DNA from: a virus | Virus record (IMG/VR): IMGVR_UViG_3300030090_005562 | Span: 84,762-148,761 of that record | Length of the DNA stretch: 64,000 nt | Reading direction: 5' to 3' (one strand) | Shown: positions 3,261-19,978 of the stretch, in pieces | How the letters are laid out: the number at the start of each line of letters is the position of its first letter | How positions within the stretch are numbered: position 1 is the first letter of the stretch | Made by a program: the position numbers and the translations under genes | Notes under the pieces: model-generated | The model's database searches: none | What the model was told of the DNA's origin: nothing | What the model saw: only the letters and a program-made list of their open reading frames with translations

Positions 3261-3281
3261 ATTTTTAAAAATAGGATAAAA

Positions 3282-11422: not shown

Positions 11423-11441
11423 TAGTGTTAAAATTGTTTTT

Positions 11442-16560: not shown

Positions 16561-16750
16561 TAAAAGTTGTCCTTTCGTTTTTTAGGGACGCTTGCTTTTT
16601 TTGTACCACCCGGCGTTTTACAACAATAACAATACATACGTTAATTTTTATAAAAACCCCCCTTTGTAATCACAAGCAACTAAAAGCAGCATTGTGATAA
16701 TACAGTCCCGTTTTACTCTCCGCCAGTTAAGCCCTAGACCGCAAATTCTC

Positions 16751-16829
16751 GTATCTCTTGTGACCACAACGACTTAGCACTCTGCGGCGTGCCCGCTTCG
16801 ACGTAACTCTTTACGCAATAAGCACTTAC
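16751..16829 (+). repeat. 79-bp double-dyad element 1
   Basis: GTATCTCTTG-tgaccac-AACGACTTAG / 25 bp with gcggcg-t-gcccgc / GTAACTCTTT-acgcaat-AAGCACTTAC. Confidence 0.9.
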
Positions 16830-16857
16830 AACTATTCTGCTTTTTTTTCTTTTTTTC

Positions 16858-16897
16858 TCAAGAATGCTCTTGACTTTTGCCGATAATATATTATAAT
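16858..16897 (+). promoter_or_regulatory. Nested sigma70 and sigma28-like early promoter
   Basis: TCAAG 16858, TTGACT 16870, GCCGATAA 16879, TATAAT. Confidence 0.75.
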
Positions 16898-17454: not shown

Positions 17455-17533
17455 ACAAAACCTTATGCTGTAAGCACTTAGGGTGGCTCGGCCTGCCCGC
17501 CGTGACGTAACTCTATACTACATAACGGCTTAC
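17455..17533 (+). repeat. 79-bp double-dyad element 2
   Basis: ACAAAACCTT-atgctgt-AAGCACTTAG / 25 bp / GTAACTCTAT-actacat-AACGGCTTAC. Confidence 0.9.
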
Positions 17534-17574
17534 AACTATTATGACTTTTTTTTTCTTTTTTGGTGAAATAGGGC

Positions 17575-17603
17575 TTGTATTTCCCAAACCATTCGATTAA
17601 AAT
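17575..17603 (+). promoter_or_regulatory. sigma70-type promoter
   Basis: TTGTAT-17-TAAAAT; near-identical to 18661-18689. Confidence 0.65.
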
Positions 17604-17787
17604 ATAGTATAAGAAAAAGGGAAAAACATTAAAGAAACAAGCAACAAAATGACGATAATAATAATAGAGAAAACAAACACGTGTGCCCCGCACACCTGTA
17701 GCCTTCCGGCGAGAAGGACAGAAGCGGGTTAAAGAAGATATGCAAACAACAAACAACAATACTCTAACCAAGAAAGGAGAAACAATC

Positions 17788-17952
17788 ATGGATTTTGATA
17801 ATGGTATTTTTCGTACCGTTCCCCATGACACCATCGACGGTGTTGTGTGGTTGGTCCGCGTGGCTGATGGTGAGAGAATCACCTTCTGCCGGACTCAAGC
17901 TGACGTAGATTCCTGCGTCGCTGAGTTGATGCGACAAAGGCTTAGCCTTTGA
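17788..17952 (+). CDS. Hypothetical protein (54 aa), MDxDNGIF family copy 1
   Basis: SD AAAGGAG; paralog of 19811-19978. Confidence 0.8.
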   Translation: MDFDNGIFRTVPHDTIDGVVWLVRVADGERITFCRTQADVDSCVAELMRQRLSL

Positions 17953-18406: not shown

Positions 18407-18541
18407 ATCACACGTATTGGTGAAGAAGGATTGCGGTTGGCACTTTGGGAAAACTGGAGGGCCTTGCGAGAAGTGTAAAGATAAAGCGACTTCAATGGCT
18501 GCACAGCGTAGGCTGAAATGGCTCAAGCGGGACTTCAACCC

Positions 18542-18620
18542 GTAACCCCTTGCGGCATAAGCACTTACGGGGCGGCGGGCGGCCCGCCTAGCTCTAACTC
18601 TATATGCAGTAACGACTTAT
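18542..18620 (+). repeat. 79-bp double-dyad element 3
   Basis: GTAACCCCTT-gcggcat-AAGCACTTAC / 25 bp with GCGGGCgGCCCGC / CTAACTCTAT-atgcagt-AACGACTTAT. Confidence 0.95.
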
Positions 18621-18695
18621 GCTATTTTGTCTTTTTTTTTGTTTTTTTGCTCAACTGGGCTTGTATTTCCCAAACCATTCGCTTAAAATATAAGT

Positions 18696-19226
18696 ATGAA
18701 AAACAGTAAAAAAGATTCAAGAGTTGCTACCCTAAATGCCGATAATAATAATATGAAAGCTTTCGTTTTTGATTTTGATGACACTCTTGCGACAACCGAT
18801 TGCTTGGTTGAAGTTATCTTCAATGGTTCCGTTGTTCGTGAACTCACCCCTGCTGAATTCAATACTTTTGAACTAGCAGAAGGTGAAAGCTTTGGATTCA
18901 ATCAATTCAAGGATATTATCAATCCGGTAGCTTTACCCTTGACGCAATTGGCTCTTGATGTACAATCTGAGAATCACAACGTTTTCATTCTGTCCGCTCG
19001 TCCGGTAGAAGCAACCGAAGCAATCAACGGTTTTCTAAAATCAATCGGTATTCAAGCCAAGCGTATCATTTGCGTAGGTGGAAAGCCGGTTGACATTGCA
19101 AAAGCAAAGCGAACCGTTTTAATGTCCATCATTGAGAATCACGAAGTGGTTTGGTTTTTTGATGATGATGATAAAAATATTCAACAGGCTAATAGTATTT
19201 CTGATTTAAATGTGAGGAAAGTGTAA
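18696..19226 (+). CDS. HAD-superfamily phosphatase
   Basis: FDFDDTL (motif I), ILSAR (II), K (III), FFDDD (IV); alternative start 18753. Confidence 0.85.
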   Translation: MKNSKKDSRVATLNADNNNMKAFVFDFDDTLATTDCLVEVIFNGSVVRELTPAEFNTFELAEGESFGFNQFKDIINPVALPLTQLALDVQSENHNVFILSARPVEATEAINGFLKSIGIQAKRIICVGGKPVDIAKAKRTVLMSIIENHEVVWFFDDDDKNIQQANSISDLNVRKV

Positions 19227-19304
19227 AATGGGTTTTACTGATTTGTGTTTCGCTTGTGTTTTCGGCGTTTTGTCCGCTTGGTTGTGGGTAGCCATAGTAA
19301 CGCT

Positions 19305-19383
19305 CTAAACCCTTATGGGGTAACGAGTTACATCGCTGCGGCCTGCCGGGTACTTTGTAACTCCTTATGTAGTAACGACTTAC
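19305..19383 (+). repeat. 79-bp double-dyad element 4
   Basis: CTAAACCCTT-atggggt-AACGAGTTAC / 25 bp / GTAACTCCTT-atgtagt-AACGACTTAC. Confidence 0.92.
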
Positions 19384-19469
19384 GGCGTGCCAAAAGTGAA
19401 AATTCTGTCCGAGAATCGTGCCAAAAAGGCGAAAATCATGCCAAAAAAAATAAATGGGCAAAAACCACT

Positions 19470-19641
19470 GGGGCATAATGCCACGGCGGGGCACAATGCC
19501 ACACCCCCCATGGGGCAAAATGCCACACTATCTGTGATTGTAAATCGTTGCGAGATATTGACTTATAATGTGGGGCAAAACGCCCCAAACGCACTGTGGC
19601 AAAACGCCACGGTTGAAAATTGCGATGGGGCAAAATGCCAC
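19470..19641 (+). repeat. Six 15-bp palindromes G(G/T)GGCAnAA(T/C)GCC(A/C)C
   Basis: Copies start at 19470, 19488, 19512, 19572, 19596, 19627. Confidence 0.9.
19540..19566 (+). repeat. Solo 27-bp dyad (half element)
   Basis: GTAAATCGTT-gcgagat-ATTGACTTAT. Confidence 0.65.
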
Positions 19642-19675
19642 ATGCCAAAAATCAGAGGAAAAGAATTGGCACGCT

Positions 19676-19702
19676 GTAACTTGTTTGATAGTAATGACTT
19701 AG
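19676..19702 (+). repeat. Solo 27-bp dyad (half element)
   Basis: GTAACTTGTT-tgatagt-AATGACTTAG, followed by the usual T-rich tract. Confidence 0.75.
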
Positions 19703-19736
19703 AGAAATATGTCTTTTTTTTTATTTTATTTCCTAT

Positions 19737-19753
19737 TTGGTACGATATATGCA
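19737..19753 (+). promoter_or_regulatory. sigma54-like (-24/-12) promoter
   Basis: TTGGTACG-atat-ATGCA versus consensus TGGCACG-N4-TTGCW; GG-N10-GC spacing exact. Confidence 0.6.
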
Positions 19754-19810
19754 CTATATAGAAGTAACAAGAGAGAAAAACAACAATAACAATTTTAAGA
19801 GGTTTTTATT

Positions 19811-19978
19811 ATGGATTATGATAATGGTATTTTTTGCACAGTTCCCTGCGATAGAGTCGAAGGTGCTGTGTGGGTAGTCCGAAAATCGGACGGTGAAAAA
19901 ATCACCTTTTGCCGTGGATATGATGACGTCATGTTCACGGTGGGTGAGCTGATGAAACAGCGGATTGCCGCCCTTTAG
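19811..19978 (+). CDS. Hypothetical protein (55 aa), MDxDNGIF family copy 2
   Basis: Hand-translated MDYDNGIFCTVPCDRVEGAVWVVRKSDGEKITFCRGYDDVMFTVGELMKQRIAAL; SD GAGG. Confidence 0.8.
   Translation: MDYDNGIFCTVPCDRVEGAVWVVRKSDGEKITFCRGYDDVMFTVGELMKQRIAAL

Follow-up and report, generated by a model that had tools for sequence, protein, structure and literature searches.

A control island of about 380 non-coding bases stands ahead of one small early gene in a large tailed phage. Its best reading, proposed from sequence and given about even chances, is an enhancer-dependent promoter region of the sigma-54 type, on which a host activator would act through two enhancers of three sites each and which would stand in for the sigma-70 promoter of the other early cassettes. 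Promoters of this class stay off unless an ATPase activator that senses a signal turns them on, and through a gene placed behind one a phage could sense a particular physiological condition of the host. The island is conserved and locked in its geometry in abundant marine phages, and the match of its palindrome word to bacterial loci supplies concrete candidate partners, namely the NtrC-family regulators of L210, L233, L237 and L231.

Architecture of the control island

The window analysed here is a stretch of 64,000 nucleotides, bases 84,762-148,761 of a 148,761-bp IMG/VR virus record rated by CheckV as 60% complete. The record belongs to a large tailed phage, with terminase, portal and RIIA genes inside the window and an upstream replication block that holds ribonucleotide reductase, a UvsX-like recombinase, a DnaB-like helicase, primase and DnaE. 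Its terminase (TerL) is less than 28% identical to those of cultured phages, a DNA similarity search against known phages gave no match, and no loci related through the upstream HAD/PNK-like gene were found. The phage group is taken to be marine because the island homologues come from Tara Oceans and other marine metagenomes; the cyanophage marker psbA was absent from the record, which is not decisive.

The early region is split into cassettes by a repeated element composed of a 27-bp box, a GC-rich palindrome, another 27-bp box and a T-run (window positions 16740-16860, 17455-17610, 18540-18700, 19297-19383, 20946, 24287, 25502 and 27593). The element is probably a large terminator hairpin, and a strong sigma-70 promoter comes after each one. 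In the other cassettes the T-run and the sigma-70 promoter follow directly after box B; here the island starts there instead, with about 290 bp standing between box B (19357-19383) and a second copy of the box with its T-run (19676-19735). A consensus scan found no sigma-70-type promoter ahead of the gene at 19811, whereas the promoters of neighbouring cassettes score 11-12 out of 12. A different motif, TGGTGTATA(a/t), often preceded by T-runs, occurs at 11441, 22821, 44798, 52422 and 56887 on the plus strand and at 3261 and 5517 on the minus strand, upstream of structural and other genes; it is a candidate late-promoter word of the phage and unlike the island promoter. The features of the island are as follows (window coordinates).

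19357..19383, plus strand: box B, the last 27-bp box of cassette element 4, repeat family D2 (compared with the cassettes at 16740, 17455 and 18540)
19386..19444, minus strand: three CRTGCCAAAA boxes (TTGGCAYG on the minus strand) at 19386, 19417 and 19437, conserved in 14 homologues
19470..19526, no strand assigned: first palindrome triplet, copies at 19470, 19488 and 19512, spacers of 3 bp and 9 bp
19540..19566, plus strand: solo 27-bp box between the palindrome triplets, with the conserved pattern TGTAA..GTT..ATAT(T/C)GACTTA
19572..19641, no strand assigned: second palindrome triplet, copies at 19572, 19596 and 19627, spacers of 9 bp and 16 bp
19641..19673, no strand assigned: two further boxes, CATGCCAAAAA at 19641 (minus-strand TTGGCATG) and TTGGCACG at 19666 (plus strand)
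19676..19735, plus strand: second solo 27-bp box, then a T-rich tract, matching a normal cassette-element end
19738..19753, plus strand: candidate sigma-54-type core promoter TGGTACGATATATGCA, GG at -24 and GC at -12, 10/12 consensus match
19797..19978, plus strand: AAGAGG ribosome-binding site and 55-aa gene with its ATG at 19811

The elements that the sequence-only reading had described are present. The six 15-bp palindromes share the form GKGGCAnAAYGCCMC (GKGGCANAAYGCCMC), which has six exact matches in the 64 kb against 0.10 expected, a number reached in none of 100 shuffles; the word occurs nowhere else in the 148,761-bp record. Their core is a GG-(N7)-CC dyad, arranged in two groups of three and bordered by A- and T-tracts, and each triplet is proposed from its sequence to provide sites for three activator dimers. 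The six dyad centres lie 105-262 bp upstream of the promoter GG, in keeping with a UAS of at least two dyads at about 80-300 bp.

Of the five TTGGCAYG boxes in 19386-19673, that at 19666 is on the plus strand and the other four are on the minus strand; the window holds nine copies where 3.9 are expected, and five of these nine fall inside the 290 bp of the island. The CRTGCCAAAA boxes, two of which (19417 and 19437) sit in 20-bp direct repeats, resemble a sigma-54 -24 element or half-site, and TGGCA is common to boxes and palindromes. All five boxes match the -24 element without a -12 partner and are not complete promoters; on hand check of the minus-strand boxes, the GG-N10-GC spacing was found only at 19437(-), where it is not conserved, and their reading as full promoters was rejected. 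Box 19666 and the left end of the island form a 20-nt inverted repeat (19374-19393 / 19666-19685) that is 85% complementary. The solo 27-bp dyads at 19540-19566 and 19676-19702 proved to be copies of the cassette-ending box of family D2 (e.g. 19357-19383), and the T-rich tract with the second solo box may give intrinsic bending between enhancer and promoter. Hand checking of the window and its homologues revealed no conserved match to the IHF consensus in this interval.

The promoter-like site, TTGGTACG-N4-ATGCA at 19737-19753, has its GG and GC in sigma-54 register. The GG-N10-GC spacing is exact when compared with the consensus TGGCACG-N4-TTGCW. TGGTACGATATATGCA departs from this consensus in TGGTAC and ATGCA, and five equal scores of 10/12 occur elsewhere in the record by chance; L056-type homologues carry TGGCACAATAGATGCA at the core promoter and reach 11/12. 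In the Klebsiella nifH promoter the sequence is TGGTAT-N5-CTGCAC, which suggests that a promoter with T at -23 and TGCAC at -12 can function. Sigma-54 promoters start about 12 nt after the GC, and from the sequence the start is predicted near 19763-19766. An invariant TATA sits at 19755-19758, just downstream of TGCA; it may serve as the -10 element of a sigma-70 promoter whose activator binds the TTTGGYAC box near -30, and the -24-like element may be simply another TTGGCAYG box. A T7-like promoter (CACTATAG) and the phage's own TGGTGTATA were discarded, as the spacing or sequence of the island promoter fits neither.

The 55-aa gene at 19811-19978 is paralogous to a 54-aa gene at 17788-17952, with which it shares MD(F/Y)DNGIF...ITFCR...ELM(K/R)QR; the paralogue stands behind a sigma-70 promoter and gene 19811 behind the island. 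The 55-aa protein had no family match in Pfam or Atlas, the latter giving sub-threshold matches only, and neither paralogue yielded a lead to a family or a fold. An open reading frame of 124 aa covers 19387-19761, which the sequence-only reading had nonetheless taken as non-coding; among the 14 homologous islands neither its strand nor its frame is conserved, and the island is therefore regarded as non-coding.

Conservation among marine homologues

Two homologues (L054 and L056) were obtained from a scan of viral contigs with the 15-mer and twelve more from a metagenome scan with the first palindrome pair, and a 14-way alignment showed that the island is kept in 14 marine phage contigs. Inside diverged spacers, the alignment has footprints at the palindromes, the CRTGCCAAAA boxes, the TGGCAYGCYGTAA..GACTTA box and the T-run. 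The promoter, compared in 13 homologues, consists of an invariant TTTGG.A and an invariant TGCA(Y)TATA with 6-7 variable positions in between at fixed length. Spacing varies by no more than 1-2 bp: in every homologue the palindromes follow one another at 18, 24, 60-62, 24 and 30-31 bp from centre to centre, and the promoter comes 103-105 bp after the last of them. Copy 5 shows a symmetric double change between homologues (GTGGC..GCCAC to GGGGC..GCCCC), copy 4 decays in L054 and L256, and two haplotypes recombine within the island. Because the spacings are kept and the open reading frame is not, we interpret the island as a non-coding nucleoprotein site of fixed geometry. An extra GC-rich, hairpin-like insert (GTAGCCCCGTAGGCCCCCCAGAGAGGGGGCGG) is present in the leader between promoter and small gene at L054:9240-9300 and also in L252 and L256.

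The palindrome word in bacteria and other phages

The sequence-only reading had proposed a search of candidate host genomes for the 15-mer upstream of -24/-12 promoters. One genome per species, 185,579 bacterial species in all, was scanned with a two-palindrome pattern, and 51 arrays were found against about 0.3 expected. A sigma-54-type promoter was scored when it matched at least 10 of 12 positions within 200 bp and read away from the array. Such promoters were found 30-110 bp from the array in 12 of the 51 cases (about eight independent lineages, among Myxococcota, Desulfuromonadota-type bacteria, Planctomycetota and Thioalkalivibrio); at randomly chosen positions of these loci the figure was 22 of 1707 (1.3%).

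Eight of the 51 loci have a gene for an NtrC-family activator inside the 8-kb stretch. In six of these eight, the palindrome pair comes directly after the stop codon of a REC-Sigma54_activat-HTH_8 gene and is followed by the promoter (modules at L210:640-860, L233:3500-3760 (-), L237:4540-4760, L212:2090-2350, L215:5850-6100 (-) and L231:780-1050); examples of promoters behind such pairs are TGGCACGCTGCTTGCG and TGGCACACAGGTTGCG. The dyads of these modules (GGGGCAnnnTGCCCC) are 2-3 bp apart in five loci and about 19 bp apart in L231, with a canonical sigma-54 promoter next to them, and in L210, L233 and L237 the dyads are separated by 3 bp, just as the first two palindromes of the window are. 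The five delta/myxobacterial module loci have a single-domain response-regulator gene downstream. NCBIfam offered no specific name for the activators of the modules, the strict pair pattern recovered only the seed genome among 301 genomes of one phylum, and no experimental study of these modules was found in the literature. Like the window, the modules (together with L234, L242 and L219) carry GKGGCAnnnYGCCMC with TGGCAC-N5-(T/G)TGC(A/T) downstream. Unlike the window, they consist of two sites at 30-110 bp from the promoter with an activator gene adjoining, whereas in the phage island there are six, at 105-262 bp, with no gene for an activator, and the enhancer-to-promoter distance exceeds that of the bacterial loci.

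The word has other uses as well. O-like wHTH initiator genes that neighbour SSB, found in viral contigs and in one gammaproteobacterial locus, hold 3-5 copies internally (L118:838-1728, L136:660-1220 (-), L205:4542-5399 (-) and L086:1083-2039 (-)); the forms there are GTGGCAAAAYGCCAC or AGGGCAAAATGCCCC, in unrelated phages or prophages, and these arrays are presumably the origins of those phages. In nine Firmicutes or spirochaete genomes, a DUF4143/AAA_14 ATPase gene is preceded by a pair of aaaacGGGGCAAAAYGCCCCgaaa repeats 33 bp apart (L199, L201, L202, L204, L206, L216, L223, L224 and L238), which could be short terminator hairpins on the opposite strand. The word is thus reused in three settings, as enhancer, as O-like iteron and upstream of DUF4143 ATPase genes, and since it occurs in several contexts the word alone is not diagnostic and context decides. 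This three-way reuse of a 15-bp word warns against inferring function from a motif alone. In the window, where a conserved -24/-12 site occupies the position of a promoter and no initiator gene is present, the context matches the settings with a sigma-54 promoter and an activator gene and not the others.

Palindromes combined with a sigma-54-like site were also seen in two unrelated viral contigs, L122 and L107; at 2 of 41 viral arrays versus a background of 2.7%, this combination is not above background. Immediately upstream of its array, L122 carries an HTH gene of the XRE family. In L107, a 112-kb viral contig of 57% GC, four GCGGCArAATGCCGC palindromes at positions 100-470 come after a set of about ten CCGTGCC boxes, part of which form 17-bp tandem units; this is the bipartite layout of the window, and TGGCACGGCATGTGCT reads away on the other side. 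G001, a complete 157-kb phage genome with terminal repeats (64% GC overall and higher locally), has a 1-kb gene-free gap at G001:C1:25300-26325 (L017:1290-2320) with five to six of the same palindromes and a 40-bp direct repeat (GGGGCTACGAGATGACCGACTGGTCAG). The palindrome cluster is single per genome in the window's record and in G001.

A phage-encoded binder or activator was then sought. Searches of the 148.7-kb record with PF00158, PF04552, phrog_678, PF13730, PF02954, PF03869 and PF02195 were all negative; Sigma54_activat was absent from this record and from G001-G003, and Sigma54_DBD, HTH_36, HTH_8, Arc and ParB were absent from the record. Neither the ten small genes nearby nor the larger neighbours yielded a DNA-binding family. 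When all open reading frames of the window's phage were compared with G001, only an HNH nuclease and one 48-aa stretch were shared, and no DNA-binding protein was common to both. The best protein match between these unrelated phages is the HNH/endonuclease VII-like gene, with 44% identity over the C-terminal 94 aa; in the window's record (G000) it lies just 5' of the first DnaE gene (G000:C1:11970-12848, L081:971-1849). Given that G001 shares the word and not a binder, and that the phage offers no candidate, the palindromes point either to a factor of the host or to a phage protein that evolves very fast, and a cognate activator, encoded neither in the record nor in G001-G003, would have to be supplied by the host. 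A partition site (parS/centromere) was rejected, as there was no ParB_N match and the sole AAA_31 match is the P-loop of the DnaB-like helicase.

Proposed mechanism, alternatives and known systems

In the proposed mechanism, host RNA polymerase with sigma-54 would wait as a closed complex on TGGYAC-N5-RTGCA (19738-19753), while dimers of a host NtrC-family enhancer-binding protein would fill the six dyads in their two groups of three and build ATPase hexamers. The T-rich tract and the intervening 27-bp box would assist DNA looping, the TTGGCAYG boxes would belong to the complex, and ATP hydrolysis would open the promoter, so that the 55-aa gene at 19811 would be transcribed only when a signal turns on the host activator. 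Three points are inferred: sigma-54 and a matching activator are present in the host, this activator binds the palindromes, and transcripts begin near 19765. As the island replaces an ordinary promoter and its palindromes match sigma-54 activator sites in bacteria, the small early gene is probably activator-gated and on only while a signal-sensing host activator is active. The enhancer/promoter interpretation put forward in the sequence-only reading gains from the 13 homologues, in which the -24/-12 blocks are invariant and the spacer variable, and from several bacterial phyla in which the word occurs beside NtrC-family genes and ahead of canonical sigma-54 promoters; this support is partial, the same word also forming iterons within O-like initiator genes.

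Iterons are what the palindromes would be if the island were a replication origin or a once-per-genome assembly site, where a phage dimeric initiator would bind them and the flanking A/T-rich tracts would unwind. The four dyad iterons recognised by lambda O likewise have an A-tract at the centre, and such a function would agree with the single cluster in both the window's record and complete G001, with the 3-5 copies of the word in the O-like genes of L118, L136, L086 and L205, with the rigid geometry and the A- and T-tracts around the array, and with a phage that owns a helicase, a primase, DnaE and a UvsX-like recombinase. An origin had also been considered from the sequence alone, and the skew analysis suggested at that point did not favour it: the cumulative GC skew has no extremum at the island, no DnaA boxes lie nearby and there is no initiator, while in complete G001 the skew minimum is at 35 kb and the array at 25.8 kb. 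The replication genes are about 87 kb from the island, and PHROG, Pfam and a custom HMM built from the four array-bearing O-like proteins detected no O-like initiator at E<=10 in the window's record (60% complete), G001, L054 or L056. An origin would also leave the conserved -24/-12 blocks and the exact location at the place of a promoter unexplained. We consider it unlikely, and retain it at that level because 40% of the genome is missing and iterons of this kind have precedent. In another reading the palindromes are an operator array for a phage-encoded regulator, its gene possibly in the missing 40%, which via the TTTGGYAC box would activate a -10-only sigma-70 promoter (TATAnn, 19755-19760), an arrangement resembling T4 MotA middle promoters or lambda cII. 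TATA is indeed invariant just past TGCA (TATAGT in L056-type homologues), the box-to-TATA distance of 12 bp is similar to the geometry of T4 middle promoters, TGGCA recurs in boxes and palindromes, and the L122 array has its XRE-family HTH gene directly upstream. A global activator, however, would be expected at many promoters, and the box and the palindrome are confined to this place; the ten small and the larger neighbouring genes contain no DNA-binding family, and the G001 palindromes are identical, yet the two phages have no detectable DNA-binding protein in common. This arrangement seems rather unlikely to us.

Titration offers another use for so many sites. As a decoy, the dyads of the multiplying genome would titrate the host enhancer-binding protein and the boxes would park sigma-54 holoenzyme, shutting down a host sigma-54 regulon instead of driving a phage gene or besides doing so. 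There are far more sites than the pairs at bacterial promoters, the five boxes match -24 without -12, and L107 repeats the layout with about ten boxes; a decoy would nevertheless not need a fixed distance to a conserved core promoter, and to our knowledge DNA-site titration is not known for phages and sigma-54. We hold this to be very improbable. Little better are the prospects of a decoy that is a promoter as well, in which the six amplified dyads would soak up the host activator and the -24-only boxes would park sigma-54 holoenzyme: were this so, the host sigma-54 regulon (e.g. stress, motility, defence) would be silenced with one phage gene tied to the same signal, and the parallel layout of L107 would mark a recurrent phage strategy. 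Least credible of all is that the island forms a structured RNA or an array of single-strand hairpins, or that it is a small mobile insertion with the 20-nt inverted repeat as its ends. The terminal repeat is 85% complementary, the RNA fold z-score is -2.6, and the island looks like an insertion that separates box B from the T-run and has duplicated the box. In all homologues, though, the G/A mismatch at positions 2/14 persists in four of the six palindromes, and two copies have A/C at position 6/10, and since these mismatches persist, base pairing is not the conserved property. The hairpin reading was rejected on this conserved 2/14 mismatch and on the decay of copy 4 in L054 without compensation; there is one copy per genome and no transposase, and tRNA and Rfam searches found no RNA family in or near the island.

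The island was compared with known systems. Like a lambda-type origin, the island has a GC-armed dyad array with an AAAA(C/T) centre next to A/T-rich DNA; unlike such an origin, the array is intergenic and coupled to a promoter-like site, and no O-like gene was found. A literature search for the palindrome word returned only primers for NorR mutants and the AmrZ operator. The operator amrZ1 of AmrZ, an Arc-like ribbon-helix-helix protein, contains GGCAAAACGCC, with GGC/GCC half-sites and an A-tract centre (PMC3325190). It differs from the island in being a single site in Pseudomonas, and no Arc-family protein was found in the phage. Enhancer-binding proteins that carry Fis-type HTH domains recognise dyads of 11 bp whose centre is 3 bp of A/T. 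At E. coli norV, NorR recognises three GT-(N7)-AC dyads with an 11-bp core and a 3-bp A/T centre, one dimer per site and three dimers to one hexamer, the sites being about two helical turns apart upstream of a sigma-54 promoter (PMC2831303). The island dyads likewise have an 11-bp core and an A/T centre, and they come in two triplets. Their GG..CC form is exactly the mutation that inactivates NorR sites (PMC2831303), which implies an activator other than NorR. The island further differs from the NorR enhancer in its six sites and -24-like boxes, in its location in a phage and in having no activator gene nearby.

Sigma-54 control had been called rarely reported in phages, which is fair: a published case is Pseudomonas phage YuA, a lytic phage with a sigma-54-like promoter that depends on host factors (PMC10914365, citing Ceyssens et al., 2008). 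Among the few published phage cases, we found no multi-site enhancer with a word that can be matched to bacterial activator loci. In the consulted parts of the same source (PMC10914365), no multi-site enhancer is described for the YuA promoter, and YuA belongs to another phage group with another host. Sigma-54-type phage promoters thus have a published precedent in YuA, and the island is most likely, at about even chances, a promoter of this class that depends on a host activator and has an unusually large, geometry-locked enhancer.
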